Below are positions 638-49,428 of a stretch of DNA of 64,000 nt, one piece after another. This stretch comes from Hyaloraphidium curvatum SAG 235-1. Lineage: Eukaryota; Fungi; Monoblepharomycota. The notes under the pieces are model-generated. The model did not search any database. It had not been told where the DNA came from and was given only the letters and a program-made list of their open reading frames with translations. Position 1 is the first letter of the stretch; each line of letters opens with the position of its first letter. A program made the position numbers and the translations under genes. Location: NCBI GenBank assembly GCA_025558095.1, contig JAIVFI010000026.1:372001-436000 (forward strand), written 5' to 3'.

Positions 638-738
638 TCCGCGCGAAGAAGACGAATGTTGCGCGCATAGTAAAATTTGGTGCATAGTTTTTGGGATGAG
701 TCGCGCATAGTATTGGGATGATGTGCGCACAGTTTTTG
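638..738 (+). repeat. Left (sub)terminal inverted repeat, GCGCATAGT array
   Basis: GGTGCATAGTTTTTGGGATGAGTCGCGCATAGT...GCGCACAGTTTT versus the right-end reverse complement GGCGCATAGTTTTAGGATGAGGCGCGCATAGT...GCGCACAGTTTT. Confidence 0.75.
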
Positions 739-964
739 CGTTGCGCTTTTTCACCTTCCAGATCGGTCCTCCTTACCTCTCTGTGGGAAAAGGCCAAGAT
801 TAACGCACTCAGACGCGACCAGAATGATCAAATCTAGCTAGGTAGGTGCCGCACTGGGTGTGTTGTTCATTGAAACGCAGTACGCGTCTCGCTGATCGGA
901 AGGCCTTCGACGACTTCGCGCAAGAGGTCAATTCCGTCCCCATTCACGGGATATCGGACAGTTG

Positions 965-3765: not shown

Positions 3766-5247
3766 ATGACGGAAGCGATTCGTGGAGCAGACATCGATGT
3801 GGACGAGGTCCAGGAGTTTCCGATTAGGCTGGTAAAGCGCCCGTCGCAGCGTGACCGCAAGAACCAGAAGAGCATTCGCTCGAAAGCGAGAGCTTGGGAA
3901 AGGGTCGATGAATTGATTGCAGCCGGAAAGAAGCGCTTTCCCGGTTTTGCGTCCCTGGACGGGCGCTTCCTGGAGTGGTTGAAAGCAAATCCGAAGGCGA
4001 ACGGTTCTGTCCACAGTCCCGTAACGCTTCTGCAGTATCACACCGTATCCGGAATCATTGGTCGTTTGATCGTAGGAAAGAAGCGCGGCATCGCTTACGC
4101 AGAGACCTTCCTTCAACTCCCAGTGGACGATCCTTCCGTGCAAAACTTCCGGGTTTGGTTGAACTACTACACACCCGAACGCATCTGGAGGCTTGTCCAG
4201 AAACACACATCCAATTTCGCTTCCCAGAGCGCATTCGCAGTGGCTCTCCTGAAGATGTTTACCTTTCATCGTGGATCCTCCGACCACGCAGACGTGATGT
4301 TCTTCACTGACAAAATCAAGGAGCTAGGGAAGATGACAGCTGTTGCAAAGCGATTGCAGCTGCCGCAGTTGGGCGCGGGGGACCTTCAAGTCGAATTTCG
4401 CACAATTCGAGACAAGGTACGGAGCTACGCGGAAAACATCCTCACGCGTTTTGAAGCAGCACCACCTGACGTGATTCAGAGAGGACTATCCGAAATACAG
4501 GCAGCTGCCATCACATCGCTTTACGTCCTGCACCCGCCTTCGCGTGCAGACTACGCATACCTTCGATTCACTCCCTCGAAAACCCACAACTACTTTGATG
4601 GTGGGGAGAACAGTCTTGTGTTTGTTAATTTCAAAACGGCCGCTACGTACGGTGTTGTTCGCGTCAAGATTGAGAATCCGATCGTGAGTCGACTTTTGCA
4701 CTTGCTCGCTGACAAGATCCGATCGCAGAATGGGGATCGCTACGTGTTCATGTCGCGACCCGGTAAGGCTTTTTCGACTGAGGCCGGGTTTGGACAACAC
4801 GTCGGCTACTGTTTCCGGCGTGTAACCGGCACGGCGCTTCGTCCTACCGCACTCCGGCGTCTCTATTTGAGCGATCACGCGAACGGCACCGTTGATCAGA
4901 ACGGGGAACACCGAGTGCCTTCCATGGAGGAAAACACGTCGCTTGCACGCAACATGATGCACAGCGTGGGCATGCAGGCATCCTACCGTCGGATGCCAAC
5001 GCTAGATCACATTCGGTCTACGATTCCTACCAACGACCCTGCGGTGCCCCGTGACGTTGCTTCGGCTGCAATCGAAGCTGTTGGTCGGATGCAGGCCGTG
5101 CAAGCTGACGGGTCAAGGGAGCAGCGCCTGGCGTGGGAAAAGGCCAAGCGCGACCTGGTGCGAAAAGCGGTGGAGATCGACGAGGCGCGTGAAGCAGCCG
5201 CTAAACGGCATCGTGAGAGACTCCACCAGAGGCGGTTGTCACAGTAG
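3766..5247 (+). CDS. Tyrosine recombinase/integrase (PLV/virophage/NCLDV-type)
   Basis: HPPSRADY (R), NFKTAATYG (K), RPTALRRLYLS (second R; H of HxLR absent), LARNMMHS...QASY (H, Y nucleophile). Intronless. Confidence 0.85.
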   Translation: MTEAIRGADIDVDEVQEFPIRLVKRPSQRDRKNQKSIRSKARAWERVDELIAAGKKRFPGFASLDGRFLEWLKANPKANGSVHSPVTLLQYHTVSGIIGRLIVGKKRGIAYAETFLQLPVDDPSVQNFRVWLNYYTPERIWRLVQKHTSNFASQSAFAVALLKMFTFHRGSSDHADVMFFTDKIKELGKMTAVAKRLQLPQLGAGDLQVEFRTIRDKVRSYAENILTRFEAAPPDVIQRGLSEIQAAAITSLYVLHPPSRADYAYLRFTPSKTHNYFDGGENSLVFVNFKTAATYGVVRVKIENPIVSRLLHLLADKIRSQNGDRYVFMSRPGKAFSTEAGFGQHVGYCFRRVTGTALRPTALRRLYLSDHANGTVDQNGEHRVPSMEENTSLARNMMHSVGMQASYRRMPTLDHIRSTIPTNDPAVPRDVASAAIEAVGRMQAVQADGSREQRLAWEKAKRDLVRKAVEIDEAREAAAKRHRERLHQRRLSQ

Positions 5248-6630: not shown

Positions 6631-6677
6631 CGATGAGGGTTGAACGGCAAAAACGTCTTCCTACATCTGCCGATTCG

Positions 6678-8051: not shown

Positions 8052-8834
8052 ATGCTGCAGCTTCCGGAGCTTGACACGGCAGGGATCGCGGCGATTGCCA
8101 AAGAGATCCCGTACGGCGTGTGGTTCATCTGCGGCAAACGCGGATCGGGCAAATCGGTCCTCGCCAAGTGGATCATGAGCGCAGTTGCCGAGCGCTTCGG
8201 GCTCTTTGTTGCCGTTTCGTCCACGGAGGGGTTCAATCGCCACTATTCGAGCTTTCTGCCCAAGGCCTTCTGCCATCACGCATACAGCCCCGAAGCGCTT
8301 GCACGGATCGTCGATGCCCAGAGCCGCCGCGTGAAAGAGTTGGGCGTCTCCAAGGAAACCAGCCTTCTTCTAGTGCTTGACGACGTGTTGCATGACGGTC
8401 AAGAGCTCTTCAAAGACAAGAATCTGAAGCACATCTTCATGAACGGCCGACACATTGGAATCTGTCTTCTCCTGCTTGTGCAATACATTGTCGCCGTGCC
8501 GTTGGCTCTCCGCAGCAACGTCGACATCACAATCAGCTTCGCAGACGACACATACGACGTAAGACAGCGTCTTTGGAAACTGGCCGGTGGAAGTCTGAAG
8601 TACCCTCAATTCTGCGAGTTCTTCAACCGCGCTACGGAAGGTAGAAGGGCGCTCGTCATTGTCGCGCGTGCAACAAAACAGGGAAAGATGTTTTGGGTGC
8701 TTGCCAAAGACGCCCCAAGTCTGCGCCTTGGCAGTGACTTGATGTGGTCCTTTCAGCGCCGCTGGGGCATTGACCGTCTGCCCAGGGCGGAGCAGGCTCT
8801 GTACCGCTCCAGATTCGTCGCAGTGAGCAAGTAG
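8052..8834 (+). CDS. A32-like virion DNA packaging ATPase (FtsK-HerA family)
   Basis: Walker A GKRGSGKS, Walker B LLLVLDD, arginine finger MNGRH, and LLVQY; 260 aa. Confidence 0.9.
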   Translation: MLQLPELDTAGIAAIAKEIPYGVWFICGKRGSGKSVLAKWIMSAVAERFGLFVAVSSTEGFNRHYSSFLPKAFCHHAYSPEALARIVDAQSRRVKELGVSKETSLLLVLDDVLHDGQELFKDKNLKHIFMNGRHIGICLLLLVQYIVAVPLALRSNVDITISFADDTYDVRQRLWKLAGGSLKYPQFCEFFNRATEGRRALVIVARATKQGKMFWVLAKDAPSLRLGSDLMWSFQRRWGIDRLPRAEQALYRSRFVAVSK

Positions 8835-9841: not shown

Positions 9842-10429
9842 ATGACCGCCGCTTGTGCCGCCTCCAAGGCCAGTTCCGACGCACTGGGCATGTTTGGAGG
9901 CGTGGACAACGCCGACGAGCTCACGGACGACGTTCTGCGGCACCTGCTTGTCGCGTGGCGCGCAAGCGGGCAGGGCGGTCACGATGTCTACTGGGATCTC
10001 GCCATCGGAGCGCTGTGTCTGGCCGACGGACGGGGAGACGCGCATGCTGCGGCGTTTTGGACGCAGATCGGCGCCATGGCCGCTCCCGGCGGCATTGGGA
10101 AGGGGGAGACGGCGGAGGCGGCGTTGGACCGCGGAGTGGGGAGCGTACAACTGCTCCAAGCGGTCGCTGCCGGGGACTTGGTGCGGCTCCGGCAGTGGCT
10201 CTCTGCCGGCTGGAAGCCGAGCTTTGTGGGATGTGCGGCCGGGTCGATCCGTGGTCGGGACGCGATGGACGTCGTGGAGCTCCTGCGCGCGCTTCGCACG
10301 CACGGGGTGCGGTTGCCGCCCGCTGACAAGTTGGACTGGGACAGCCTCCAAGCTGGAGACAAGGGCGAGGCGATTTTGGTGGCCAGCATGTATCGGGAAG
10401 ATGCGATTGCACTACAGGGTCTGCTGTGA
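9842..10429 (+). CDS. Hypothetical helical protein, paralog of 26559-27242
   Basis: FW...PGGIGKGETAEAALDRGVGSVQL...GWKPSFVG versus FW...PGGIRDRESPQRAMERGIGSTQL...GFRPGFAG. Confidence 0.65.
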   Translation: MTAACAASKASSDALGMFGGVDNADELTDDVLRHLLVAWRASGQGGHDVYWDLAIGALCLADGRGDAHAAAFWTQIGAMAAPGGIGKGETAEAALDRGVGSVQLLQAVAAGDLVRLRQWLSAGWKPSFVGCAAGSIRGRDAMDVVELLRALRTHGVRLPPADKLDWDSLQAGDKGEAILVASMYREDAIALQGLL

Positions 10430-13442: not shown

Positions 13443-14025
13443 CGTCGTTGGCCGTGTGGATCGGGAATAATTCCATCTGCGTGGTCGCGGTGGGGCGGGG
13501 AAAGGGGCGGTGTGACACTTTTAGGTCCGTGACACATGGAACTGGGTCGCCACGCGGCGACCAGCTAGCTAGTGCAATGAGCCTCACGACCACGGCACGC
13601 CGCCGACTCCGTCTCCGTCTCCAGCCGACCGGTGACGGCCGCAACGGCGCTTCGTGCGTCTCCGACGTTTGTCCGCCGCCTCGCACGGGACCGGGGTCCA
13701 CAGAGCATCCGTCTTCGTCTTTGCGTGCGTGCCAGGTAGCGGCGATCGGGTGTGGGTGGCGGCCATCGGCGCGGGTGGTGCAGATCGGTGCTGGTGGCGG
13801 CGATCTGCGCGGTTGAGCGGCTTTGGCGGCGTCTGCGTCTGCGGGAGGCTCGTCGTGCCTTTGCGCCATGCGTCGCCTCTGCACTTCCGTCAGACCACGC
13901 GGCCACGGGAAGCGCAGCCCGTGCCATTGACCGCACTGGCTGCTCCGGACAGCTTCGTACACCCCTCTGGATCACGGTGGCGTTCATTTCGGGCTTTTTT
14001 GTGGCAACCGGGTGCTCATCGGGCG

Positions 14026-14223
14026 ATTCGGGGCATTCGGGGTATTCGGGGCATTTTTTAGGGCCCCGGGCCTAGGCCGAAGGGCAGATTCAAGGATGGT
14101 ATATACGGAAAAATCTTTTAATTTGTATCCATTATAAAAAAATACCCCTGATCTCCGCGAACCCCCAAAGCCACCTGGCGCCGACCCCCCAAAAAATGCC
14201 CCGAATGCCCCGAATACCCCGAT
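14026..14223. promoter_or_regulatory. Origin-like block 1: inverted 9-bp iteron arrays flanking an AT-rich core
   Basis: (ATTCGGGGY)x3+ATTTTTT at 14026-14059, inverted copy at 14191-14223, AT-rich core ~14096-14145. Lies downstream of primase-helicase 1. Confidence 0.6.
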
Positions 14224-14546
14224 GGCCAGAGGAGCGGCCCAAAACCGCCGCCCGAAGCACAGCAAGTAGCCACGAAGCCCCCAGCATGAAAGCGGGCTGA
14301 AAAATGCGCCCCGGACGGGTACGATCTGGGCGCCCGGACGTCCGAATTTTGGCGGGTCAACGGCCCACCCCACAAAATGCCCCGACGCGCACCCCCGGCG
14401 TGCCCTGCTCCAAAGCAGCTGTGCAATCAATGAAAAAGACACCAATGCACCTTTCTGTGAGTTTGAGGCGGGTTCGGAAGCGTCATGCGGCCGAAAGGCG
14501 CCCCTTCGTCAGCTGGTCGCTGGATGGTGAGTCATCAATCCGTTTC

Positions 14547-17500
14547 TCACTGGGCTGCAATGATGCGCCTACAGAGCCCCGTGTACTCGGCAGTTTTGTT
14601 CGCATCTTTCCTTTCTGTGCGCTCGACACGGCCTCCATCGACTTCAAACGCCTTGCGCGCAATCAGCTTTGTCATGTGCCTACCAAAAGCGTTCATCTTC
14701 ATCCGCTCCTCAATCGGATAGAAGTGTTCTTCGTAGTCGGCAAAGAGCTCCCTCGCTGAGACGGATTCCCGTGCAATCCGAGCGGCATCGATGGAAACTT
14801 CGTAGTTCGTAAGTATCCACCGCAGCACAGCATCGTTATCGTTCAAGTGTTCATCCGTAGTCTTCTTTATACTGGGAGGCGGTGTGAGGCCAGTCCCGTC
14901 TCCCGGTCGCTCCAGGGACGACTGGATGAAAGCATCCTTCCACTTACGGTATCCTTCAATGAGCCATTTCATCATCGCCATGCGCATCTCGGGTTTCTTT
15001 AATTCTCGCCCGAGTCCAGAGTCCTTCATCTTCCAGTATTCCTCACCAGCAGCTGCGGCCGGGTCGTCGACGAACTTTGTGCGGTACGGCACATTCCGTG
15101 CCCTACGAGTGATCGCGTCGCTTGTTGCATCAAACTTTGGAATATCGTTGATGAAAACCCACATCTTTGCGATTAGCGAAAACTGAACGGTGTTGCCGTT
15201 GAGAAAACGCCCAGAGGTTCGATTGCCTGATGTGTAGACGTTGAAGCGCTCCACATTCAACTTGCGCACCGGTCCAGATTCACTGATGATAACACAGCGC
15301 TTTCCGCGGAGAGCCATCAATTCTGGAGTCGCCCGCTCGACATCCCCCACATGGTCACAGAGGATGCCGATCTTGGTTGAACCGGCGTAATCTCCCAGTG
15401 CGTATTCCATGGCCTTGCCTTTGACGCCCTTGCCGTTGGATGCGCTTCCGAGGCAAAAGTGCATCACCTGTTCGAAGCATTCCCCGGTGATACTGTATCC
15501 CGATGCTCGGTGGGCGTATTCGTACTCTTCTTCGACGGGGTAGATGTCCTTCATGATTTGCACAATGCGCTCGTAGTCCACGTTTGGAACTTCATCCAAA
15601 GGAACAAAGTCGTATCCGGTGGTGTAGCTCAGCATCCATTCGCGACGTCCACCTGGGTAGAAGAGCCCCGTTTCCAGATCGTACGTCCCGTTGTTGAACT
15701 GAACTGCGTATGGCTTCGTATCAAGCAATTCGTCGAACTGGCTTGCATCGACGCCCATCTCTGCAGCCAGTTGGTTCACAACATGCCCCTGAAACGTGTC
15801 CGACTCAAGGTCCATCAGCACTTTCCGTATCTTCGCGACCTTTGCTGCCAGTAGGTCTTTTGCCTCATCTGTCGCACCATTCTCACTAGCGTCGCGAAGC
15901 AGGCGTTCATAGACGCGAAGAGCAAGAACAAAAGGCGAATAAGCCTCCTCCTGTCGAATGTATCTGAGCACAGCATGGCTCCCGTCCTTCTTCTTGGTAG
16001 GATCGTAGCGCCAGCGTGACCCCGACCAGTGCCCCCATGCACCGGAGGCTTCCGAATAAATGAAGGGACATCCTTCTTTCGATTCGAGAGGGTTGTTGAT
16101 GGCCAAGAACTTGGAGATCGATGAGTGTCCGCCGCTCAATGCTTTCAGAAGAGACCTGTTCCATTCGGGCCCCCGATCGGGATCAACCGTGACGCCGTCT
16201 GCTTCAAATTCGTGCCAAGCCCCCCCTTCATCGACCGCGCCGTAATTGTGGTTGTGCACGACGGTCGTGTTTTGGTTGATGACCATGAGCAAAGAGCAGT
16301 GCAAAGCAGCCCGATCCCGTGGTATCGGCATGGGCTCTTTGAACAAGTTGCGATTGCACTGTGGGCAAGACAACTGGACCCCCAATCCAGTCACCGAACA
16401 GTTGCGCGGCGTCTTTTTGCGGCAGAATCCGCACTTCTTTGTTCCCTGTACGCGCGCAACGGTCCCTTCAAAACCGGTCATGGTGCTGTGGTTGCGCAGA
16501 AACACCTCCTTTGGCTCGCAGTTGGCGATCGACGAGGTGAGTTCGATGGCCTCCTGGTGCGCAGAAGACGAAAATTCGATGGGCTCCATATTCCAATTCG
16601 CGCCCCAAATTGCGGCGGCGTCAGCGGCCTTCATTTTCGCCTTCTTGCTCTCTCCGGAGTCCCATGTAACGACCACGTCTTTTCCCTTCGCAATTTCGAC
16701 GAAAAAGCCCTCCCCAACAACGCGGTAGGTCAAAACACCATCAAGCATCGTTTTCGAGACCGTCTTCCGTGCAGACAACACGTGTGGTCTCTTGTCGAAC
16801 TTGCATAGAGCACCCACTGCCGACTGAAGGACCGCCACCTGCTCGGCATCTTCCATTCTGAACATGGGAACCGAAACCGACTCTGACGATACGCTGGCGC
16901 AGTCTTGCTCCGCAAGGCCACTCGCTTCAACCATCACGCAATCACCGTCAGTGTCGTTCGCACCTGCAACCACTACAGCAGGTTGCGAGGCCTCGTCCGA
17001 TTCCATGGCAGGTTCAGCCTCCATGTCATTGGTGGTCTCCACATCGCCGGCAGCGACTTCTATCGCCACCCTCGACGCCCGCACGGCCGCGGACGGACTG
17101 TACGCGATCGGATCGGCCGCTTCTTCTTGGTTCCGCACCTTGCGTTTCAGGCCGAGAAAGAGCACCCGAACGCGAAGGCATGTCTCAGTCTGTCCCAGGA
17201 TCTCCTTTCCTTTCTTCAATGTCATGTTCTTTTCGCCGATGGTGACTCGCAGTCCATCGCTCAACGGGACCAAGATGTATGGGAAGTCGCCTGTGCAGAA
17301 GCGGATTGCAGTGTAGTCGACGCCCCCGACCCTCCGTGTGCCAAACAATGCCCGTTCGACCGCATGTGCAACAATCCGCTGCTGCTCCGTGCTCATGCTC
17401 TGATTCTCCGGAAAGATCCGCGTCAAGAGAGCTGTCGGGACGGTGAGTTCGAGCACCTTTCCCGCCTCCTTGCACTCTGTCGCCTCGCAGATATAGACAG

Positions 17501-19478
17501 CACTGCCGCGCTCGTAAGTTTTGATCAGGCGGCGCGCAGTTTCTTTGTCGACATCGTCGCCGTGGAGCCAGCCAGATGCCTCTCCCTTGTGCGCACATTG
17601 GCGGTCTCTCAGCCTCACCCACACGCAACGGCTCCCGACCTCCCCTGTGGTACCGCAATCCTTCATTTGAAGCGGGAACCAAGCCAGAGGATTGTCCTCC
17701 ATCTCGCCCGCCCCACGCCCGCAACGGTAGTAGTCAAGGAGATCCTCGCACGCGCGCGCCTGATCCTCCGTGAGCTTCCCATACGCGCCGGATGCGTTCC
17801 ACTTCGGAATGTATCCAATTTCGACGCCCCTGCTGTGCATCCGCTCAGCGCGTTCCGCGCCGTAGTCCGATTCCAGCTCCTCCTGCGTCGGACGAATCAT
17901 CAACGCCATGATCCGGTCCACCGTCGCTTCCAGTGCCTCACCGGTCTCCAGCGACATGGGAAGGTAAAACGTCCCACTGCGCTTCCTCGACAGCGGCAGC
18001 CGCTTGTTCGCGAAATCGACGCGGAACACGCCCGTGTCGATGGAAGCAAAGCGTCCCATCTCGTCGTCGGCGAGCAACTTCTTGGCACGCTCCGCAATCT
18101 CGTGCATCGCCCTCAGACTCGCAATTCCATTCGGCGCGACGATGTGCAACTTCCCGGGCTCCACGGCGTTGAACTCCGCGGCAAGCCCGGCGGTGAACCC
18201 GTTCGCAATCTCGCTGCCCTCCGCTTCGCCCAGAACGGCAACGCAGAAATCTCTGCACGCCTGTTTGAGCACTCGAACCACGGCACTGGCGAGCTTCAAG
18301 CGCCCCGGCGCATCCGCAAAAGCACTGTAATCGCCCCCGTCGTCGCGCCTGTCCACCTCTGCAAAGACGCGCGCGTACTTGAGCCCGCGCGTCAGTTCGG
18401 AGAAGCACAGGACCTTGGAGTCCGGGTGGTTGCGATGTTCGTCGATCATAGCCTGTGCAAACGTCCGCAGGGCCGCGCGGTCGTTCGGCACCCTGATCTT
18501 GCCGGGGATGCCGGCACCGGGGCCTGCGAGAAGCAGAGTGTGCGTGCTCTGAGCGCTGTCCTTGACGGCATGCTGCCAGACGAACTGGGCGAGCGCGCTT
18601 CGCTGCCTCCCAAACGGGACAAGCACGTCGCGGCTGCCGCTGCCGCTCCCGGCGCCGGCACCACCGCCCGCGGCGGTCGCGCGCTGTCCCTTGCCGGATT
18701 TGGAGACCTTCTTTTGCACGGCGGGGTGTCGCCCGAGGATGACGTCCACGAGTGCATCGGGCATGCGCGCTGGAAGGCGGTCAAAGAGCGACGCACCGGG
18801 ATCGAACCGGTAGTGGGCAACGGTGCCGTCCGGGAGACGGTAGCTCGTCGGCGGCGCGTAGATGATGCCCCCTGAGCCGCGCGTGTCGATGTCTAGCACC
18901 TTGCCGTCGATGCTGAATGCTTTTGCCGTAAGCGTCTCTCCTGCAAGCCTGTCGTCGTTTGCAAAATAAAGATGGCGCCCTTTTCGCGTCGTCACCGTCA
19001 CGGTGGCGATGCTCTCGACGCTGGGGATGCCGACGGTGTGGAGGAGCAAGTCCAGATCAGCCAGATTGTCTCCGTCGATGACGAAAATCCCACCCGGCTC
19101 CCCCGTGACGAGGCATAGCCCGTTGTGGTGTTGTTTGACCTCGCAAACCGTGCGATACCGCTGCTCATCCGACGGGTTGTCGCATTTCTTGACGATTTGG
19201 CCCTTCGCGTCGGTGTAAGACGTCATGTGGAGTGGAACGACCCGGATCCCCATGGCCCGAAACGCGGATGCCGCCGAAGCCACTGTGAGCTCTCCGGATG
19301 GGCGTGGTACAAGCACCAGGGAGGAGGCGCATGTCGTGTCCGTTTCGTCCCGCTGCGGAGTGGTTTCGATTTCCTCCTCGGCAGCCACTGACTGGGCCTT
19401 CCCCGGTGGCGAAGGTGTGAGCGACGCCGCGAAGGACGGGGCATCCGATTCGTCGTCGCTAGCGTTTGTCCAATCCAT
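14547..19478 (-). CDS. Prim-Pol + AEP primase + D5-like SF3 helicase fusion
   Basis: Prim-Pol IFVIDGD/GRHLYF/IDTRG..GIIYAPPT; AEP RVFAEVD/KLHIV/IDTGVF; CxxC pairs; D5 FNNGTYDL; Walker A GSASNGKG, Walker B VIISE, motif C VFIND, AITRR. Confidence 0.9.
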   Translation of the reverse strand: MDWTNASDDESDAPSFAASLTPSPPGKAQSVAAEEEIETTPQRDETDTTCASSLVLVPRPSGELTVASAASAFRAMGIRVVPLHMTSYTDAKGQIVKKCDNPSDEQRYRTVCEVKQHHNGLCLVTGEPGGIFVIDGDNLADLDLLLHTVGIPSVESIATVTVTTRKGRHLYFANDDRLAGETLTAKAFSIDGKVLDIDTRGSGGIIYAPPTSYRLPDGTVAHYRFDPGASLFDRLPARMPDALVDVILGRHPAVQKKVSKSGKGQRATAAGGGAGAGSGSGSRDVLVPFGRQRSALAQFVWQHAVKDSAQSTHTLLLAGPGAGIPGKIRVPNDRAALRTFAQAMIDEHRNHPDSKVLCFSELTRGLKYARVFAEVDRRDDGGDYSAFADAPGRLKLASAVVRVLKQACRDFCVAVLGEAEGSEIANGFTAGLAAEFNAVEPGKLHIVAPNGIASLRAMHEIAERAKKLLADDEMGRFASIDTGVFRVDFANKRLPLSRKRSGTFYLPMSLETGEALEATVDRIMALMIRPTQEELESDYGAERAERMHSRGVEIGYIPKWNASGAYGKLTEDQARACEDLLDYYRCGRGAGEMEDNPLAWFPLQMKDCGTTGEVGSRCVWVRLRDRQCAHKGEASGWLHGDDVDKETARRLIKTYERGSAVYICEATECKEAGKVLELTVPTALLTRIFPENQSMSTEQQRIVAHAVERALFGTRRVGGVDYTAIRFCTGDFPYILVPLSDGLRVTIGEKNMTLKKGKEILGQTETCLRVRVLFLGLKRKVRNQEEAADPIAYSPSAAVRASRVAIEVAAGDVETTNDMEAEPAMESDEASQPAVVVAGANDTDGDCVMVEASGLAEQDCASVSSESVSVPMFRMEDAEQVAVLQSAVGALCKFDKRPHVLSARKTVSKTMLDGVLTYRVVGEGFFVEIAKGKDVVVTWDSGESKKAKMKAADAAAIWGANWNMEPIEFSSSAHQEAIELTSSIANCEPKEVFLRNHSTMTGFEGTVARVQGTKKCGFCRKKTPRNCSVTGLGVQLSCPQCNRNLFKEPMPIPRDRAALHCSLLMVINQNTTVVHNHNYGAVDEGGAWHEFEADGVTVDPDRGPEWNRSLLKALSGGHSSISKFLAINNPLESKEGCPFIYSEASGAWGHWSGSRWRYDPTKKKDGSHAVLRYIRQEEAYSPFVLALRVYERLLRDASENGATDEAKDLLAAKVAKIRKVLMDLESDTFQGHVVNQLAAEMGVDASQFDELLDTKPYAVQFNNGTYDLETGLFYPGGRREWMLSYTTGYDFVPLDEVPNVDYERIVQIMKDIYPVEEEYEYAHRASGYSITGECFEQVMHFCLGSASNGKGVKGKAMEYALGDYAGSTKIGILCDHVGDVERATPELMALRGKRCVIISESGPVRKLNVERFNVYTSGNRTSGRFLNGNTVQFSLIAKMWVFINDIPKFDATSDAITRRARNVPYRTKFVDDPAAAAGEEYWKMKDSGLGRELKKPEMRMAMMKWLIEGYRKWKDAFIQSSLERPGDGTGLTPPPSIKKTTDEHLNDNDAVLRWILTNYEVSIDAARIARESVSARELFADYEEHFYPIEERMKMNAFGRHMTKLIARKAFEVDGGRVERTERKDANKTAEYTGLCRRIIAAQ

Positions 19479-20170: not shown

Positions 20171-20760
20171 TCAAAACCTGCGCACACCCGTCCTTCCACC
20201 GGCCAGCGCAACAACCAACCCATCCGGCATCCTGGTCGGTACCCTATCAAATGGGCTTGCCCCGTCGCTCCACGTCCACGCCACCTCCTCCCCGCCCGGC
20301 CCGATGTACCCCGCAGGAGGCACCACCACCCAACCGCCAGCATTCCTCCACTGCACCTCCACCACTTCGCCATCCACCTTGTACCTTCTCGCCGAAGCCT
20401 GCATCCGCGCCAAGCGCTGATCGTACCGAAACACCACCACACGACCATGCGGCCCGATCGCAGACACCGAATCCAAACCCGGCAACACCCCCATCCCGCA
20501 CTTGCCCAGCAACGCCTCCAGTCCGTCCTTGTCGTCGCACTCCAACGCCACGACGCCTCCAACGGCGCCCGTCGCAAGTCCCACGGCGTTGTGTTGCGGC
20601 AGCACCCGGTGCTCCACGTTCTTGTGCCAATTCAACGGGAGAGACACACGCTCCGATCCCGTGCGCGCATTCCAGCCGATGCACACGGGGAAGGCGACGT
20701 AGCCCAGCTCCTTGTACGCGCGAACGGCGTCGGCCACCGTCAATTCCGCTTCCGGCTTGG
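20171..20760 (-). pseudogene. Stand-alone, catalytically degenerate Prim-Pol domain
   Basis: HNAVGLATGAVGGVVALECD...GASPFDRVPTRMPDGLV aligns with the N-terminal Prim-Pol of 14547-19478 (HNGLCLVTGEPGGIFVIDGD...GASLFDRLPARMPDALV). Catalytic residues are replaced and there is no nearby in-frame ATG. Confidence 0.7.
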
Positions 20761-21056
20761 TACCGAGTGCAAAGCGCCTCGGCACCGGGGCAACACCTTG
20801 ACGGGCGTCTGCTGGCCATCGACGACAGTGTCCGACACGGGCCGAGATCCTTCGGGGGATGCCATCAACGATTTGAAGGCTCTGCGAGGATTCAAAAATC
20901 CGTCCGTGCGCGCCGCCGAGGCCGAAGCGAGCGCGTGATTGCAACCACCGTCCCACTTGCCCCTCTGTTTCCGCTTTCGCTGGTGACAATGCCTCGTCGC
21001 GGTCAGGGGCCCCATCATTCTCGAGCGGCGTTGGATCAGCCTGGATTGACTGAAGG

Positions 21057-21728
21057 ATGGGTGCTGCGGTGTCCACCCAAATTGCCGACACGACCAGTGA
21101 AATCTTAATCGATGTCATGATCTCCAACAGCGCCGAGTGCAGTGCCTTGTCGGAACAGCGCGGGAGCATCAATCTCACGGCAAAGGGTCCAATTGTGCTC
21201 CGGGATGGTGCCCGAATCAACCAAAATTCGAACGTCAGTCTTTCCTGTATTTTGGAAAGCACGAACGACACCAAACTCCGCTCAGATCTTCGTTCGCAAC
21301 TTTCGCAGGCGGTCAAGCAGGAGCTAGAGGGCCTGAATCTCCTGCAGACCGCGGTCAACGCCAACATCACGCGGCAGGTAGCGAAAGTGGCCCAAACGAT
21401 CGACATCCAGGACATCAAACGGCAGATCGGTTCGATCATTCAGCAGGGCGATATCACTTTGCGTTCGACCGATGACCGCATTGAACTCAAAGAAGCCGTG
21501 ATCGACCAGGACGCCACGGTACTGGTGAAGGCAGTATCCCAGACGGTCAACCGAAACGAAGCCGTGGCGGAGCTCCAAAACATGGTGACGCAGGAAAACA
21601 CACAAAAACTGGTCGGAATCATGACCGCGGGCGGTCTCGTCGTCATCGTTGTCGTTGTCGCGATCGCGTACTTTTGGCTCAACCACAGGAGCGACAGCAA
21701 AGGCCGAAACTCGGACGACGACGACTGA
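21057..21728 (+). CDS. Myristoylated virion membrane protein (poxvirus L1-like/NCLDV lipid membrane protein)
   Basis: MGAAVS myristoylation start, Q/N/S/T-rich ectodomain with Cys, single C-terminal TM helix (GGLVVIVVVVAIAYFWL). Confidence 0.8.
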   Translation: MGAAVSTQIADTTSEILIDVMISNSAECSALSEQRGSINLTAKGPIVLRDGARINQNSNVSLSCILESTNDTKLRSDLRSQLSQAVKQELEGLNLLQTAVNANITRQVAKVAQTIDIQDIKRQIGSIIQQGDITLRSTDDRIELKEAVIDQDATVLVKAVSQTVNRNEAVAELQNMVTQENTQKLVGIMTAGGLVVIVVVVAIAYFWLNHRSDSKGRNSDDDD

Positions 21729-29578: not shown

Positions 29579-32500
29579 ATGGCCGTCGACGAGCAAGGGC
29601 GGGCGCCGGAGCCGGAGCCGGAGCCCGAGCCGGAGCGGGAGCGGGAGCGGGAGCCGGAGCACATCTGGGCAGAGAACGTCCGTCGTGCCGCTGCCGAGCT
29701 GAACGACGGGACCGCGCCTCGGCCGACGGAGCTGCTGACGCTGCTGCAAAAGTATGCTTTGATCAAGCCCACGACATTCACCATGTTCGGCCCGCCTGGC
29801 CACACCGGCGCATTTGGCATTGCCGCGGACGACCGCATGGACCTCGCAACGTCGTACTACGTTGCTCGCTACCAGCGCTACCCGCCTCCTCGGCTGTACC
29901 TCAACGAAACGCTTCCCCGCGGCACGCCGATGAGACTCTACTTTGATGTGGACTTTCCCTCCGAGGCGACCCTCGACGCGTTCTTGACGGTGTCTGGACT
30001 CCCCGACGAAGCAGCCTTCCTGACCGCGCTTCTGGAAGCCACGGACAAGTGCATTGAGACCGGTGCCTTCTTCCCGCGCGACGAAGCCGAGGAGACGCGC
30101 ATGTTCTTTCGCCTCGTCTCCAAACGCCGCGGAAAGCGTGGAAAATACCACATTCACTACCCGCACGCGATCGTCGACGCTCCGTACGCCAAGTACTTGG
30201 CCCAGGACGCCGGGCGGCGGTTCATGGCGTCGCTGCCGGGGGGTGGGGCTGCGTACATGGGCCTCCCCGCGCCGGAGCCTACCGGGTCGCACGCTGGCGC
30301 CGAGGCGGAATCCCCGGCCGCTCCTGCGACGTGGGATGCGACGGCCAAACTGTTCGACACCGGAGTCTACACCAGCGGACTGCGCGTCCTGGGCAGCTGC
30401 AAGAGGGATGTGACGGACCAAGGATACGCGCTGCTTTCTGAGGACTTCCAAGAGATCGACCTGCCGTCGTTTGCCCAGTTCGAGGCCACGCTCGTCAGCG
30501 TCAACCGCGGCGACCCGTTGCAGGCACGCGTCGCCGAGGCTCTTGAAGCCGATTCGGGCGGCGTGGCCCCGGGTGGGGACAACTACGGTGAAGACACTTT
30601 CATCCAATACGACGGCACGGCCATCCGCCTGCGGAACACGGATGATTCGCGGGCGGAGCTGGCCTTGCGCGCGATCGACTATCTCCGACGCGAAAAGCGC
30701 AAGCCGGAGCATGCCTTTCACGCGCACGAAGGTGATTTCGTGCCGAGGCGCATCACAACCAAAAGCGCGGACGAGAAGAAGGTCGGCAAGAAAAGCCCGC
30801 CGCTCAAATCGGTAATCGTCGATCTGCACGATGTGTACTGCATCTACAAGGGCGGGAACCACAAGCGGGCACGCGAAGGTCGGGCGTGCGTCTACATCTG
30901 TTTCAGCGGCAGGAAGTGCAGCATCCGGTGCCTGGACGAGAGCTGCAAGACGAAAGCAGGCAGCAAATGGATCAGTGTGGCTGTCTGCGGGGTCAACATC
31001 TGGGACTTGGTGGGGCCTGCGACGCCCCCGCTCCCGGCCCCCATCGCCCCCCGACCTGCCCCCTCCGCGCGTCTCCTGATGGAAGAGAGCGACGCCGACA
31101 ATGAGGCCGACGAGGAGGCCGACGAGGATCACGCTGCTGGTGCGGGCGACGACGACGATCCCGTGCTGCCCCCCGCGGTCGATTTTGGTACTCCTGCGCC
31201 GGCGACGCCTCCAGCGGCTCCGGCCCGTGCCCGCGCGGGACCCGCCGCGCGCCCGCACTCTGCACCGCCCCCGCCTCCGGGGAACGCCGCCGAGGAGGGT
31301 GCGGGAGCGCTGCTGGTGATCGACAGCGCGGAAGGGACCGCTGTGGTGGACGCCGCGCGCTACGTCGTCCGGAAGGCGCTCTCGGACGCGGCCAGGAAGG
31401 CCAAAGCCAACGCCACCAAGCAGGCCCTCAACGACGCCGTCGCCCTGGTGACCCAGTCGGCGTTCTACGTCAAGAAGACCAAGGTCAACGGGAACGTCCT
31501 GTACACCATCCAGGACCAGCACGGCGCATGCGTGGAGATGCGCCAGCGGACGCAAACCCACGCGGTCGTGCGGCACACAAGGATCGCCGAGGTGGAGGTC
31601 GCACTGCGGTCGGCGGACGCCAGGGCCATCTGGGGAGGCGATTGGTCTGACGAGGTGCTGCTTCTTTCTACACGGGCCCAGCAGGAGGCCCTGCAGATGG
31701 TTTCGGACTACGCCAACTGCTCGCCCACCAAGGTGACCGTGGAACGGATGGATCTGGAGCCCGGATTCAAGGGGACCGTCGCCAAAGTCCACAACAAGGA
31801 GCAGTGTCCGTTTTGCGAAACGGAAACGCGGCGGGACTGGACTTCGACGGCCCCGGGGCTGCAGATGACATGCCCCGACTGCGGGAAAAGCATGTTCCGC
31901 AAGGCGATCCCGATCCCGGACACGTACCCTGCGCTCCGCATGTCGCTCACGCAGATCAACATCTCCAACCTCACGGTCATCAACCAGACCGTGGAGAGCG
32001 GACGGGCGCAAAGCGCCGAACAGATCGTGGGGCAATTCCTGGGAGACGGCATCACGATCGACCCGTCCAGGGGCGCAGAGTGGAACACACGTCTCCTGAA
32101 GGCCTGTGGCGGCACGCACGCAAGCGTCGCTGCGTTTTACGCCTGCAACAACGACCTGGAGAGCCCCGCCGGCTGCCCCTATGTCTACTCCATCGGAACC
32201 CAGAGATGGGCCAAGTTCAGCACGCGCTGGTACTACCGCACCGGCGTCAAGACGACCCCGTTCGCGTTGATCCGAGGACGGGATGCGCTGGAGCCGTTCT
32301 ACAAAGCCCTCGCCGCATACGACTCGGCAGACCCGGAAACCCGTAAGGCGCGCCAGGAGCAGATCAGGAGGGTGATGACCGACATGGAGGACGACCGGTT
32401 CCAAAAGGCGGTCGTTTCTCAGCTGGAGAAGGAGCTGGAGGTCACCCCGGAGGCGTTCGACGACTTACTGGACACAAACCCCGACATTCTGCAGTTTGAC

Positions 32501-33712
32501 GACGGCAGTTACGACCTGCGTACGGACACGTTCTTTCCTGGCGGTCGTCGGGAATGGTTCCAATCGAAATCTGTGGGATACGACTATGCCGAGGTCACTC
32601 GGGTGACGCCCGAGCAGGACAAGGAGGTCGAACGTATCGCCGCGGAGATTGTCCCCGACGACGAGCAGCGCCGGTACACGCAGAAGGCTCTCGGACTGTG
32701 CGTGTCCGGCCATCTCAACCACCGTGCACACTTTTGCATCGGATCGGGTGGTAACGGGAAAAGCATTCTTTTTGGTGGCACTGGGTCTGCTCTCGGGGAA
32801 TATGCGATCGTCATCGACGCTGCCATATTCACCGATCAACTCGCCAACTTGGAAGCGCCCTCCCCACAGCTCATGCGTATCAAGGGCACTCGTCTGGTCC
32901 TCATCACGGAATGGAACAAGAAAACATTGGAAGTGGCCCGCTTCAAGAACTACGTCGGCGGCGAGAAGATATCCGGCAGAAACCTCAACGGGAACCCGGT
33001 GGTCTTCAAGGTCATGGCAAAGTTCTTCGTCGCCTGCAACAACGAGATCCAATTCGAAGGGTCGGATGGCGGCGTCGTGCGCCGGTTTTGTCAGCTGAAC
33101 TTCCCCGTGCGTTTCGTGGACGAACTGGACCCGGTGGAGGAGGCGGCGGCGGTGAAGGGCGGGAAGAAGTACTTGCGACAGAGGGACCTCACCCTGGAGC
33201 GCCGATTTGAAGAGGAACTCCGGCCTGCCATGATGAAATGGCTCCTGGCGGGGTACCGCCTGTACAAGGCCGAGGGGTTGAACCCCCCCAAAGCCGTTGT
33301 GGAAGCTACGGCTCAGGGTTTGGATGCAAACAACTCCGTCTTGCGTTTCCTGGAGGGTACCTGCGAGATTGGCGTGGGCGGCTTCGTGGAGGGGGCAACG
33401 CTGCATGGTCTGTATGTGGCGAGGAGACGGGACAAGATGTCGCCTGTTGAGTTCGGCAGGCAGATGGGAGCACTCCGCAAGGAAGGACGTGCTTTGTATG
33501 GCAAGGTGACGTCGGAGAAGAAGGGGGGCAAGACGGTGTACGTCGGCCTTCGCTTGAAAGGACCGGAGGCGCGCCTGCAGGACGAGACGACTACCTCCAC
33601 GGGCGCCCGGCCCGCCGAGGCGGAGCGGGACGAAGCAGCCGCCCCTACCGGAACGGGCACTCAGGAAGTGGATGTTGCCAATGCAGTGGAGATGGAGGTA
33701 GACGCATTGTGA
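29579..33712 (+). CDS. AEP primase + D5-like SF3 helicase
   Basis: LYFDVDF, KYHIHYP, FDTGVY..GLRVLGSCK, Zn-binding Cys; LQFDDGSYDL; Walker A GSGGNGKS, LVLITE, VACNN, GVVRRF. Confidence 0.9.
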   Translation: MAVDEQGRAPEPEPEPEPEREREREPEHIWAENVRRAAAELNDGTAPRPTELLTLLQKYALIKPTTFTMFGPPGHTGAFGIAADDRMDLATSYYVARYQRYPPPRLYLNETLPRGTPMRLYFDVDFPSEATLDAFLTVSGLPDEAAFLTALLEATDKCIETGAFFPRDEAEETRMFFRLVSKRRGKRGKYHIHYPHAIVDAPYAKYLAQDAGRRFMASLPGGGAAYMGLPAPEPTGSHAGAEAESPAAPATWDATAKLFDTGVYTSGLRVLGSCKRDVTDQGYALLSEDFQEIDLPSFAQFEATLVSVNRGDPLQARVAEALEADSGGVAPGGDNYGEDTFIQYDGTAIRLRNTDDSRAELALRAIDYLRREKRKPEHAFHAHEGDFVPRRITTKSADEKKVGKKSPPLKSVIVDLHDVYCIYKGGNHKRAREGRACVYICFSGRKCSIRCLDESCKTKAGSKWISVAVCGVNIWDLVGPATPPLPAPIAPRPAPSARLLMEESDADNEADEEADEDHAAGAGDDDDPVLPPAVDFGTPAPATPPAAPARARAGPAARPHSAPPPPPGNAAEEGAGALLVIDSAEGTAVVDAARYVVRKALSDAARKAKANATKQALNDAVALVTQSAFYVKKTKVNGNVLYTIQDQHGACVEMRQRTQTHAVVRHTRIAEVEVALRSADARAIWGGDWSDEVLLLSTRAQQEALQMVSDYANCSPTKVTVERMDLEPGFKGTVAKVHNKEQCPFCETETRRDWTSTAPGLQMTCPDCGKSMFRKAIPIPDTYPALRMSLTQINISNLTVINQTVESGRAQSAEQIVGQFLGDGITIDPSRGAEWNTRLLKACGGTHASVAAFYACNNDLESPAGCPYVYSIGTQRWAKFSTRWYYRTGVKTTPFALIRGRDALEPFYKALAAYDSADPETRKARQEQIRRVMTDMEDDRFQKAVVSQLEKELEVTPEAFDDLLDTNPDILQFDDGSYDLRTDTFFPGGRREWFQSKSVGYDYAEVTRVTPEQDKEVERIAAEIVPDDEQRRYTQKALGLCVSGHLNHRAHFCIGSGGNGKSILFGGTGSALGEYAIVIDAAIFTDQLANLEAPSPQLMRIKGTRLVLITEWNKKTLEVARFKNYVGGEKISGRNLNGNPVVFKVMAKFFVACNNEIQFEGSDGGVVRRFCQLNFPVRFVDELDPVEEAAAVKGGKKYLRQRDLTLERRFEEELRPAMMKWLLAGYRLYKAEGLNPPKAVVEATAQGLDANNSVLRFLEGTCEIGVGGFVEGATLHGLYVARRRDKMSPVEFGRQMGALRKEGRALYGKVTSEKKGGKTVYVGLRLKGPEARLQDETTTSTGARPAEAERDEAAAPTGTGTQEVDVANAVEMEVDAL

Positions 33713-35168: not shown

Positions 35169-35418
35169 CATGCGCGAACGCGCGCTCCATCGGGGGGTGG
35201 CTGAAAATCCCCCGGTCGACCGGGGCCTGGGTCGCGCTATGCGCACCAAGTGCGCGCACCGCTATACGCACCAAGTGCGCGCACCTCAAGTTTCGCCCCG
35301 GCGCGCGCCTTCCCGGGCGGTTGTGAAGCGAGCATTGTCCGTGCGAGTCCAACTTCCGCTCCTCGCCCGCTCCGCTGCCGTGCGCTAATAGACTGGCCCG
35401 TCGCCCAACAGCGAAACG

Positions 35419-42417: not shown

Positions 42418-45400
42418 ATGACCTCAAACGCCGTCCTCACCCGGACTCTCCCCTTCGGCCGCCCATCGGCGAGCCGTTCATCAACCCCCGGTGGCGCCGC
42501 GAAAGGTCGGCGCGTACAGAGCGCTGTCGCTCCAAGCACAGACGGGAGCGATGGGTCAAGACGGGACCGCCGTTCGTGGCAGTCTGAAGAGCCAGATGAA
42601 GAACCCAAGACGTTTCTCCAGGCCGCACGGGAGTCGTGGGCGTCGTCCAAGCCGCGTGCAACGGTGACAGTGCGCGCCGGTGGGAGGAGCGACGAGTCTG
42701 GCGACGAAGAGAGCAACATCCCCAAGCCCTTCGACACCCGCCTGACCCGCGTCTCCCTCCGCGGGCTGCCGCAGTATCTACACGATCTCGACCAAGACTT
42801 CCGCCCTGTTCGCGGCGTCCAGCTCATGTCCGCAAAAGTGCACCAGTTCCTTGTCACATCAGACGGCGGGCCCGCAGGGAAGTTGGATCCACGCGCCGTC
42901 ATCCTCAACGTGGAGCAGAACCCGGCAGCGACTCGCAAGAGCGTGGAGCGGGCGATCCGGAAGCAACGCCCCGTCTACCGCTACATCATGGAATGTGTCG
43001 GGACATCGGCCTGTCCGGCACCCGGCGTCAAGTGTCCTATGCTCCTGGGGTGAGCCCGAGCGTGCCAAGTGCTCAATCTCTACTGACACGGACCCGAAAG
43101 CGTCTTCATCTTTGCGCACGACATCCAGCACGCTGTTGTGTTTACAAGGAACTTCCACGACCCGCCCAATGAAGAACGCCGCCGAACCGCTTCAATGCTC
43201 CGTACCCTGGCGTTCGACTACTTCTTGCGGTCTGGATCGACGCCCGCACAGTTCATCCTGGACGAAGGAGGCAACTTGAGCAAACTGGGCGGCATTCCGG
43301 AAGGCACGCTCAAGAGCATTGCGCGACAGGCGCGGAAGGCCAAGTTCGGTCCCGTGAGCCTCAACGTCCTTCGCAAACTGGCCAGGGATCGGCCCACGAA
43401 CGTCCAACTTCTCGGCCTCGCCGATGATGGCGAGGATATTGGGTGCGACTTTTCGTACGCCTTCACCGACACAGTTGGACTTGTCTTTGCCATTCTGTAC
43501 TCCATTGTCGTCGGCATTGACACCAGTTGGCGGCGCAAGAACGCCCAGGGGTTCCCTTTGACCGGACTCGTCGCGTTCGATCTCTTTGGGCGCCGTGCAA
43601 GGCCTCTCGCCTTCCTCTTCTCCACCAACATCAAGCGGCCTACGCTCAAACGCTTCCTCAAGTGGTTTGTCGCCCGGGTGCAGTCCTTCTGCCGGGACCT
43701 CCTTGCCTCCCCGGACGAGAGCGGATGGCCAGCCGAATTGCGGGGCTACCGGGAACTGGTCCAGCGGACGGCGACTACGGGGTGGAGGCCGAGGTGCATG
43801 ACGCTGGACAAATCGTACGCCGAGCTGGGGGCTCTCCAGGACGTTTTCGGCATCGGACTTGGAACGGTTTACCGTCTATGTTACTACCACATCAAGGAAG
43901 CCTTCATGCGCCGTGCTGGGAAGAGCAAGGATGGAAAGCGGGGGAGGAGGGATGGCGAGGCCGGAGAGGAAGACGCGATCCCCGATTCAGTGATTCCCAG
44001 AGGGGTCAGGACTGCGAGCTTTTTCGCTTTCAGGGACCTTTGCGCGAAAGCTCACAACGATGAGCAGTGGGAAAACGGCAAGAAGGAGCTACTGGAGAAG
44101 ACGATCCCCGATCTCCTCGAACGAAACGCAACCGACCATACCGCCGAGATGTGTCGGCAGATATCGCAGTGCCAGACGGCGTACGTCCAAAAGGACTGGC
44201 TCAACGACACCTGGACGCCTCTGGTGGCCGACTACCTGCTCCCGAGCGATCTCGACGTGGGCGACTGTTTCACGAACAACCACACCGAGGTCATCTGGAA
44301 GGTCATCGACAACGTCATCCTCTGCGGGAACTTCCATATTGCGACTGCCATCGTGAAGCTGGACCGTATCTGGCTCTACAGCAAGCTTACGGACGATCGC
44401 GGACACATGCACCCCAAGGTCGCCGAGGCTCTTGAACTGGGGACGGAGCTCTGGGTGAAGGGACACGTCAGGCTGTCGGAGGGCGAGATCTATGGGGTCC
44501 GTTGCGGTGATGGCAGCCGCGCCAGAGTCGACCTGTCGGCGCCGCGTCGATGGTGTGACGTCCCCGCGTGTCGCGTGGGCTCCAACCCGCATCGGTGCAA
44601 GCACTGGTTCGCCGCCGATCTCATGCGCCACAACGGCACCTTTGCCGAGTGGGAGGAGGAGAGCCGCAGAGATTTCGATTTCGAACTCTCTATCGTGCAG
44701 ATCGATGAAGAGGTTGCGGGGGTGGAGGTGGAGCAGCAGGACGAACCGATGGATCTGCAAGAGCCGCAGGCCGGCATTGGGGAGGAGCAAATGGAACCGG
44801 AGGCACCGGAGGCACCGGAGCAATGGAGAGACAACCCCAGCCTGGGCGATCATGACTTGGACGGTGCAGATGGCGTCGACGACCAGGCCTCCATCGATCT
44901 CCCGCCGCCCATCGATTTTGGCAACCGATCAACCTCGCCTCCGCCACCAAAGGCAGCACTACCGACGCCGTCACCTGCACCGGAAGAGGACGTCGACGAT
45001 GACGATGGCAATCTGACAGTGCAATCGAACACATCGCGCCAGCCCCGGGGTAGACCCCCGAAGAAAGCACCCCCGCTTCGGCCAAACCGGCGCAATTATG
45101 GGATTGTGGACTCTTCGGACGACGACGCCCCCCTTGGCGAAGAGCGTCCTCCGGCAAGGAGAACGGTCAAAATCACTCACCTTCCAGGAACGCAGAGGGC
45201 CAAACAACTGGGTGTTGAGAAGTCTAGGACAAAGCAGGCGACAACTACATCGAATTCGAATTCCAAGAAGAGGAAACGGGAGTTAGCCCAACAACCCGCA
45301 CGACCACCGCCGACGCCTCCCACGCTCCTCGCTTCGCCCGTCAAGCACAAGCGCACCGCCTACAGTGCGGAACCGTCTCTGACCTCATCAACCAACCAAT

Positions 45401-46218
45401 GGGCCGACGCCTTTGCTGTACTGCTACCTGCGCTGTACCGGGTACTACGGCGTTCGGAGAAGCGGGGTGTGATCCCTCCCCGCCTACTCTCCATCGTCGA
45501 ACGCGACGCGGGCACGAAGAGTTCCTTCGACGACTACGCGGACCACGGCTACGTTTTCCCCCCGGAGCACGATCTGAACTTTGTGCGGGATTGGGTCGCT
45601 ACCGAGACCTTGCGCAAGATCGGGGCCAGTGCGAGCACTGGGGGTGCCGTGGAGCTGATACTGGAGTTCCTCGGCAGCAGTTTCTCCGCAGGGGCCAAGT
45701 GCGAATGCGAGCCATCGACACCATCCAGGCTGACGTTCAGAGACCTCCCGATGATCAGGATAACAACCACGGGGTTTGCGGCGACGGGGAGTGCGGCTGC
45801 GAAGGAGCAACTGTGGCAGTCTGCGCTCCACACAGCCTGGCAAGGTCTTGCATCTCGGCGAGGCAGCTGCCGCGGCAACTGTGGGAGCGCCACCTTCCAT
45901 CTCACGGGAGACGTCATGCCCCCCCTTCAGGTCTTTTCCCTGGAACCCGGTGACTACCAGATTGACCTCCCTGCTGACATCACCATCGGTAAGAGCAACT
46001 TCCACTGGATTGGGACAATCTATGGTGGGGGCAAGCGTTTGTCGACACGGTGGGAGGGATCGGACGGTTTGGTCTGGCAATGGAGCAACGGACGCATCTT
46101 TCCGTTCAGTGCTCCAGATACAAACGACACGGTGGCATGGGAGGAATTGAGCGCGGGGGAACGCTTTGGGTTGAAGGGCGGAGCCAAGGCAGAACTTGTA
46201 TTCTACGCTCTTGCTTGA
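42418..46218 (+). CDS. Mutator-like (MULE) DDE transposase with SWIM finger; intron 43050-43100
   Basis: GIDTS (D), MTLDK (D), LCYYH (CxxH), TNNHTE (E), SWIM-like CDVPAC...CKHWFA. A 51-nt GTGAGC...CTGAC...AAG intron joins ORF 42418 in frame and restores a C..C...H motif. Confidence 0.85.
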
Positions 46219-46264: not shown

Positions 46265-46393
46265 AACTATGCGTGGCTAGCCCAAAACTGTGCGCCAAGC
46301 AACCACAAACTATGCGCGCCTCATCCTAAAACTATGCGCCGAAAATCCCAACCAATTGAGACTATGCGCAAAACATCTTTTGCTATGCGCGGA
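46265..46393 (-). repeat. Right (sub)terminal inverted repeat, ACTATGCGC array
   Basis: About six ACTATGCG/ACTGTGCG copies; reverse complement of the 638-738 array. Confidence 0.75.
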
Positions 46394-49360: not shown

Positions 49361-49428
49361 ACCGTGGAACTCCTCAATGCCACGCACTCGTTCAACCTCG
49401 CATACAGCTGCCAACCATGCACTAGAAA

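Follow-up and report, generated by a model that had tools for sequence, protein, structure and literature searches.

Can one gene encode two enzymes that belong to the superfamily of archaeo-eukaryotic primases (AEPs) together with a replicative helicase, and does the cell that carries it still make such a protein? The question was raised by a 64,000-nt stretch of DNA from the fungus Hyaloraphidium curvatum SAG 235-1 (GenBank assembly GCA_025558095.1, contig JAIVFI010000026.1, positions 372,001 to 436,000 of the forward strand), which is called the window and to whose first letter all positions refer. An open reading frame (ORF) in it, the tandem ORF, was originally predicted to join a Prim-Pol domain, a second AEP and a D5 helicase in one polypeptide. 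The tandem ORF is real and its domain layout is unusual. It is probably the D5-type primase-helicase gene of a virus-like element with an extra Prim-Pol, an ancestral replicase that is now, for the most part, disrupted by host splicing. A bolder reading was given only a small chance; it sees an AEP-only replicase, with two active AEPs of different clades and a D5 helicase, in a giant virus-derived transposon bounded as a Mutator-like element (MULE), and splicing as a switch to a helicase-free double-AEP enzyme.

A single long frame with a Prim-Pol and a likely second primase-type domain

The tandem ORF is a single stop-free frame of 1643 aa, and an identical 1643-aa protein is present in NCBI, on a 615,044-nt contig. 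From the N-terminus, it comprises the Prim-Pol, a linker, a putative AEP of nucleocytoplasmic large DNA virus (NCLDV)/herpes type, a putative Zn finger, a middle Zn-ribbon region, D5_N and a superfamily 3 (SF3) helicase (Table 1). The predicted D5 helicase was recovered: besides the Pfam match to D5_N (E 9.3e-15), the helicase part matched poxvirus D5/E5 and African swine fever virus (ASFV) C962R chains in the PDB (E 5e-12 to 8e-7), and it also matched P4-type primase profiles. Its motifs are Walker A GSASNGKG (15449-15426), Walker B VIISE, motif C FIND and the Arg finger TRRAR. One point counts against the preferred reading, namely that Walker A ends in GKG and not GK[ST], an ending also found in one of ten database matches.

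Contigs from two runs, X1 and X2, were compared with the window. One X1 contig covers 17941-19021 without any difference and a variant X2 contig covers 18401-18729; the junction of the fusion was therefore not produced by the assembly. A chance read-through or assembly join of two adjoining genes would suit a protein that is a singleton; however, independent contigs of both runs cross the junction, a Gly/Ser linker lies there, and synonymous changes are in excess on both sides in one frame. This explanation is most improbable and has been largely refuted.

The Prim-Pol domain and its neighbour copy

The Prim-Pol had been predicted to be intact (DGD, H, D), and it proved to be so. The PF09250 profile matched with 38 bits against a family cut-off of 22.8, all three motifs are kept (FVIDGD, GRHLYF and DIDTRG), and the catalytic residues D135 (19076), D137 (19070), H169 (18974) and D198 are present. 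The AEP/Prim-Pol consensus is DxD/E for motif I, sxH for motif II and hD for motif III (PMC4538821). The Pfam scan gave no PriCT match for a helix-bundle domain after the Prim-Pol; a low-complexity linker of about 30 aa stands there instead. A search of the ESM Atlas with aa 55-545 returned short Prim-Pol-type clusters only, which shows neither novelty nor absence.

The nearest relative of the domain that was found is a stand-alone Prim-Pol copy (E 6.8e-24), about 700 nt upstream of the tandem ORF on the same strand and 31% identical to the fused domain; the one outside match was a phage protein (E 3e-4). Neither the His nor the third Asp is left in this copy, and it has no nearby in-frame ATG. 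X1 contains a diverged copy of the region 20620-21073 (depth 222). In the simplest history, a phage- or plasmid-type Prim-Pol would have entered the element and duplicated; one copy would then have joined a D5 gene resembling the paralog, and the second copy would have degenerated.

The original prediction offered two roles for the extra Prim-Pol, as polymerase in place of a missing PolB or as a replacement of the original primase. As far as the sequence goes, polymerase supply in a PolB-less element fits, because the catalytic residues are kept, the linker replaces the helix bundle, and a motif search in all six frames of the window turned up neither PolB nor PolA.

The likely second AEP and the paralog

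Residues 282-535 likely form an AEP of the NCLDV/herpes clade, to judge from their motifs and from the Atlas. The motifs are FAEVD (E374-V-D376), GKLH (H445), SIDTGVF (D481) and RLPLSRK (R493..K499). In alignment their order is that of YFDVD, GKYH, FDTGVY and RVLGSCK in a paralog elsewhere in the window, IDTGVF pairing with FDTGVY, and D376 and H445 are invariant columns in a MAFFT alignment with the paralog and six proteins of the AEP_C962R family (PF23162). In the Atlas, aa 282-700 scored 0.95 against AEP_C962R/Herpes_UL52 clusters, with 185 of 256 features in common; Herpes_UL52 was among the matches, and nine of the ten best family matches fell within one family or clan. Motif I reads VFAEVD, with Glu at the first acidic place and both places acidic, and this ExD would still bind metal. 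The putative Zn finger (C628/H639/C664/C669) lines up by MAFFT with CIYK..H...CLDESC of the paralog at a z of 0.7 against shuffles, which is not significant.

Several results weigh against this assignment. Glu first in motif I departs from the hhhDhD/E consensus, and the motifs described as variable are II and III, motif I being given with Asp first (PMC5862659). No AEP match to aa 282-535 was obtained in Pfam, where the canonical AEP of the paralog was missed too. The comparison by hhalign with six AEP_C962R proteins gave probabilities of 0.1-0.6% only, local alignment with the paralog AEP was no better than shuffles (z=0.1), and a home-made hidden Markov model (HMM) and a PDB profile search were negative. 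The motif register was kept in two of five crop choices (mafft --auto), and shuffled proteins attained the Atlas score of 0.95 in 1 of 100. The HMM tests have little power, because the canonical AEP of the paralog fails them too. Two AlphaFold models, with a predicted local distance difference test (pLDDT) of 33 and 35, were too poor for use, and the second had been fed an alignment that already contained AEPs; the fold searches were uninformative, Foldseek returning no match at E<=0.001 and a RepB' primase appearing only at Z 3.6-3.9 amid unrelated rows. No match to the second AEP was found by tblastn in GenBank phages.

Of the predicted second AEP with an EVD motif, the motifs and the Atlas score stand, while Pfam, hhalign and the shuffle tests gave no match. 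A domain HMM search and AlphaFold had been suggested as checks: the first matched Prim-Pol and D5_N and left the AEP region unmatched, and the second gave unusable models.

These negatives are what would be expected if the middle domain were not an AEP and the protein were an ordinary Prim-Pol plus D5 helicase with a large unknown insert. Every alignment-based test was negative, the Atlas score is within reach of shuffles as given above, and Prim-Pol plus D5 proteins are common (2 of 10 matches). This explanation is nevertheless considered improbable: the Atlas score is high and its families are consistent, five motifs are ordered and placed as in the paralog, a protein with a canonical AEP that the same HMM tests also miss, and predicted strands coincide with three motifs even in the poor AlphaFold model.

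The paralog had been described as carrying the AEP alone, and the Pfam scan agreed, with no Prim-Pol match; its motif I is YFDVD. The claim that both proteins have a distinctive middle Zn region in common was also sustained. Their identity is 35% over 746 columns, from aa 907 onward, and they have the ANCxP...CxFC...CxxC unit in common (z=39 vs shuffles). In an unrooted tree of 12 rows, which names no donor, the two helicases of the window cluster together (support 100/99). The middle region was also tried as a tandem repeat of a Zn module, which was rejected (within-protein z at most 1.8). A 367-nt contig of X1 corresponds to a more diverged gene copy, matching window 17409-17774 with 18 differing letters in 104; a further paralog in the organism is thus likely.

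Sequence variation in the two domains

X2 represents a diverged copy or strain. Among the 40 differences listed of 95, 36 lay inside the ORF and were counted, and four outside it were dropped. Synonymous changes made up 21 of these 36 (expected fraction 0.27; p 7e-5), and no stops were seen. For the second AEP core, 13 of 19 listed differences were synonymous (p 1.6e-4), and for the Prim-Pol 7 of 11 (p 0.011). In the more diverged copy in X1, 5 of 8 listed differences were synonymous. The shallow depth of the X2 contigs (5-7) and the partial list of differences tell against reading too much into these counts. They indicate that both domains were under selection in the long frame, catalysis itself not being implied.

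The same counts bear on the second role proposed for the Prim-Pol. If displacement were in progress, the second AEP would be catalytically dead (EVD) and the Prim-Pol would now prime. The D-to-E change at the first position of motif I would agree with this, as would the extreme divergence of the second AEP, for which a search of 1.84 billion representatives gave no relative; mriyaviruses often carry SF3 helicases with an inactivated AEP (10.1101/2024.02.29.582850), and selection could bear on no more than a structural or DNA-binding function. However, H445, D481 and R..K are retained together with the putative Zn finger, and the Prim-Pol is without the helix bundle for priming. The second AEP does not look dead, because synonymous changes are in excess. 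Displacement of the original primase is thus disfavoured, and we regard it as quite unlikely.

Likely introns inside the open frame

The X1 contigs otherwise match the window exactly and skip three segments that read GT..AG on the coding strand (CT..AC on the forward strand). X1 is likely RNA, because the joints are canonical GT-AG. When the 73-nt segment is skipped, the DGD motif is removed and the translation predicts a 135-aa stub; contigs with and without it were found (Table 1). For the 59-nt segment, no retaining X1 contig was seen. Its skipping alone predicts a stop after 524 aa, behind both AEP cores and ahead of the putative Zn finger and the helicase, with GGAGIGLRRGTR as the new C-terminus. 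An ATG at 17840, 4 nt past the new stop, opens a 1092-aa frame with the Zn and helicase parts. The third segment, of 53 nt, spans the annotated stop. The X1 contigs reach no further than 19442 and so leave out the ATG at 19478, but contigs cannot reveal a start. An apparent 232-nt skip at 17439-17670 was rejected as an intron, the 226 other letters in between marking a diverged copy.

The 73-nt and 59-nt introns look cryptic, lying within coding sequence, because 73 and 59 are not multiples of three, the frame with homology to the paralog is preserved when they are retained, and three of the four X2 differences listed in the 73-nt segment are synonymous. The main products would be the 135-aa stub and a protein of 524 aa that has two AEPs and neither Zn finger nor helicase. 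Most present transcripts are likely disrupted by host splicing, so that the cell would make mostly shortened forms; full-length mRNA may occur as a minor form. Most full-length protein is likely not made, because the transcript is spliced. The predicted "one polypeptide" accordingly applies to the DNA frame alone, introns within the ORF being skipped in X1 contigs. It counts against this account that X1 was guessed to be RNA, neither run being recorded as such, and that the skips come from one run and from contigs only; contigs lose rare forms and give no true levels.

The same joints could belong to a regulated or domesticated splicing event, in which the 59-nt intron yields a 524-aa two-AEP primase-polymerase and the helicase is translated from the 17840 ATG or from transcripts that keep the segment. 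The main X1 contig is without the 59-nt segment, whose site has a strong consensus and is one of two such candidates in the ORF, and the new stop falls just behind the AEP core with the ATG following closely. Yet the same run also skips the DGD-bearing 73 nt, which looks unproductive, the 524-aa form is without the putative Zn finger, and X2 gives no cover at the splice sites, so that conservation in other copies is not visible. Regulated splicing was judged unlikely, and breakage of an ancestral replicase remains the preferred reading.

Genomic context

A virus-like block extends from about 660 to 46,390 (about 45.7 kb) within a eukaryotic contig and holds an A32 ATPase, two D5 genes and others. 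Right of about 49 kb, Pfam matched eukaryotic genes (Rap_GAP, WD40, RING and GFA); a Zn2Cys6 match was also obtained in the window, which would point to a fungal host. The tandem ORF likely belongs to this integrated virus-like element. The element ends form an imperfect inverted repeat (71-81%), and six of the eight GCGCATAG copies in the window lie at these ends, facing inward; a count of eight was attained by 1 of 100 shuffles. No common word of 7-12 nt that would mark a target-site duplication was found at the flanks examined. With inverted GCGCATAG ends and a MULE-like transposase, the 45.7-kb block is possibly a giant transposon bearing viral genes. The remaining two GCGCATAG copies (28655-28662 and 35237-35244) point inward around the paralog, possibly as a nested 6.6-kb unit, or by chance.

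No capsid match was obtained in 42, 23 and 8 ORFs or segments scanned, which were part of the ORFs only; divergent or spliced genes would also escape. Against the preferred reading, the element may no longer replicate, because no capsid gene was found. The ORF at 3766..5247 gave no Pfam or NCBIfam match, and its residues follow what we take to be the tyrosine recombinase pattern; the product of 21057..21728, which presumably resembles L1R, matched no L1R family in the Pfam scans.

Other features were noted in the window. Three adjoining ORFs at 5239-7160 (-), of 174, 145 and 160 aa, are alike by eye and come after the likely recombinase; they are perhaps recombinase N-terminal-like domains. 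Just downstream of the tandem gene, at 13992-14249, imperfect inverted repeats (arms of 55 and 49 nt) with an AT-rich core look origin- or promoter-like. A fragment of a DNA ligase OB domain lies at 39503-40123 (-) (PF14743, E 3.5e-9). The ORFs at 9842-10429 (+) and 26559-27242 (-) look paralogous by eye, and those at 2136-3419, 27321-28586 and 38076-39290 begin with F-box-like segments, with one weak Pfam match. Host repeats lie on both flanks of the element (1-406 and 47348-49363), among them a near-perfect direct duplication of 486 nt and an inverted copy of 200 nt.

Table 1. Positions of the features of the tandem ORF, its introns and the surrounding element in the window
Feature	Position	Strand	Evidence or remark
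Tandem ORF	14547..19478	-	ORF translation
Prim-Pol PF09250, aa 75-240	18759..19256	-	Pfam E 2.8e-9; Atlas Prim-Pol clusters 0.90; motifs
Lys/Gly/Ser/Ala-rich linker, aa ~252-282	18633..18725	-	Sequence
Second AEP core, likely NCLDV/herpes-clade, aa 282-535	17874..18635	-	Atlas 0.95; motif register; synonymous excess
Putative UL52/PrimPol-like Zn finger, C628, H639, C664, C669	17379..17801	-	Spacing; MAFFT with paralog
Middle region common to paralog, CGFC...CPQC Zn ribbon, C1016, C1019, C1038, C1041	16254..16760	-	
D5_N domain, aa 1139-1312	15543..16064	-	Pfam E 9.3e-15
SF3 helicase	14550..15542	-	Profile/PDB matches; Walker A, Walker B, motif C, Arg finger
73-nt GT..AG segment with DGD motif	19021..19093	-	Depth 624 in the contig that skips it, 489 in the one that retains it
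59-nt GTGAG..CAG segment	17883..17941	-	Skipped in main X1 contig, depth 902
53-nt GT..AG segment over annotated stop	14520..14572	-	Skipped in X1; C-terminal CRRIIAAQ becomes STS
Stand-alone degenerate Prim-Pol copy	20198..20758	-	tblastn E 6.8e-24; ECD in place of DGD, Val replacing His, Gln replacing Asp
Paralog: AEP (FDVD, H, D), Zn finger, same middle region, D5 helicase	29579..33712	+	
Putative left element end	662..744		Imperfect inverted repeat, two GCGCATAG
Putative right element end	46284..46391		Four inverted GCGCATAG
Likely MULE-type transposase, SWIM-like Cys/His motif	43195..46218	+	Pfam MULE E 0.065, below cut-off; motifs by eye
A32-like packaging ATPase	8052..8834	+	Pfam Pox_A32 E 3.3e-11
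Likely tyrosine recombinase	3766..5247	+	R, K, R, H, Y order by eye
Likely L1R-like myristoylated membrane protein	21057..21728	+	MGAAVS start, C-terminal hydrophobic helix

Relation to known replicases

Searches for homologues returned only the protein itself for aa 55-1120 (among 7986 scored candidates) and for aa 282-700 (among the 1.84 billion representatives), and none of 7993 for aa 50-870 of the paralog; locus scans of viral contigs, metagenomes and prokaryote genomes gave no counterpart. Among the 10 non-self matches to the helicase region, AEP_C962R plus D5 occurred in 6, Prim-Pol plus D5 in 2 and both AEPs in 0. No tandem-AEP protein was found in the accessible text of the literature searched; the bioRxiv supplementary domain tables lay outside that scope, and one may be listed there.

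The likely AEP, Zn module, D5_N and SF3 helicase stand in the same order as in vaccinia D5, mpox E5 and ASFV C962R. Unlike the D5-like proteins of Nucleocytoviricota, with their single N-terminal AEP, the tandem ORF has an extra N-terminal Prim-Pol, an ExD motif I and a middle region of about 400 aa with a CxxC..CxxC ribbon; there is no PriCT_2, and no PolB nearby. With pRN1 ORF904, BFK20 gp43-like proteins and the NrS-1 polymerase it has in common a three-motif PF09250 domain at the helicase N-terminus. Those proteins have one AEP and then a helix bundle, whereas the tandem ORF has a linker and then a likely AEP of another clade. Plasmid and phage Prim-Pol AEPs both prime and extend DNA (PMC4538821).

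The element also resembles the polinton-like virus (PLV) AEP-SF3, TVpol-S3H and mriyavirus SF3_hel1 systems: these are small integrated or PolB-less elements with an A32 ATPase, a tyrosine recombinase and a primase/polymerase-helicase fusion. The PLV and mriyavirus replicases, as described, have one polymerase-type domain per protein, whereas the tandem ORF has the Prim-Pol plus a likely second AEP; unlike in those elements, no capsid or HUH gene was found here, and an L1R-like gene and a MULE-like transposase are present. Primase, polymerase and helicase are likewise in one chain in phage 1706 GP55 (PMC12205980) and P0003 (Prim-Pol + D5 + PolA). The polymerase of such phage replicases belongs to family B or A, and a second AEP would take its place here. 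Eroding giant endogenous elements of Porterinema (PMC11890097) and Amoebidium (PMC11244446) similarly hold viral genes, some transcribed with introns, and an incomplete core set; acquired introns are a mark of endogenous viruses undergoing erosion (PMC11890097, PMC11244446). Unlike in those elements, the introns here are cut from a still-open frame and break the protein.

Functional implications

Priming by pRN1 requires the helix bundle after the Prim-Pol core (PMC2965215), and in human PrimPol the UL52-like Zn finger is required for priming and not for extension (PMC4538821). Since a helix bundle is missing from the Prim-Pol and a putative Zn finger belongs to the second AEP, the second AEP with this finger would prime, the Prim-Pol would act as the elongating polymerase in a PolB-less element, and the D5 helicase would unwind.

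The protein is a singleton, the element is likely eroding, and activity is deduced from sequence; these set the limits of what follows. If both domains are active, primase and polymerase would be two AEPs of separate clades, a layout seen in none of the ten database matches. If true, the gene would test, in a natural setting, how AEPs split priming and elongation and whether ExD can substitute for DxD. The removal of introns from a still-open, selected viral frame would offer a snapshot of the spliceosome disabling or reshaping an endogenous viral gene.

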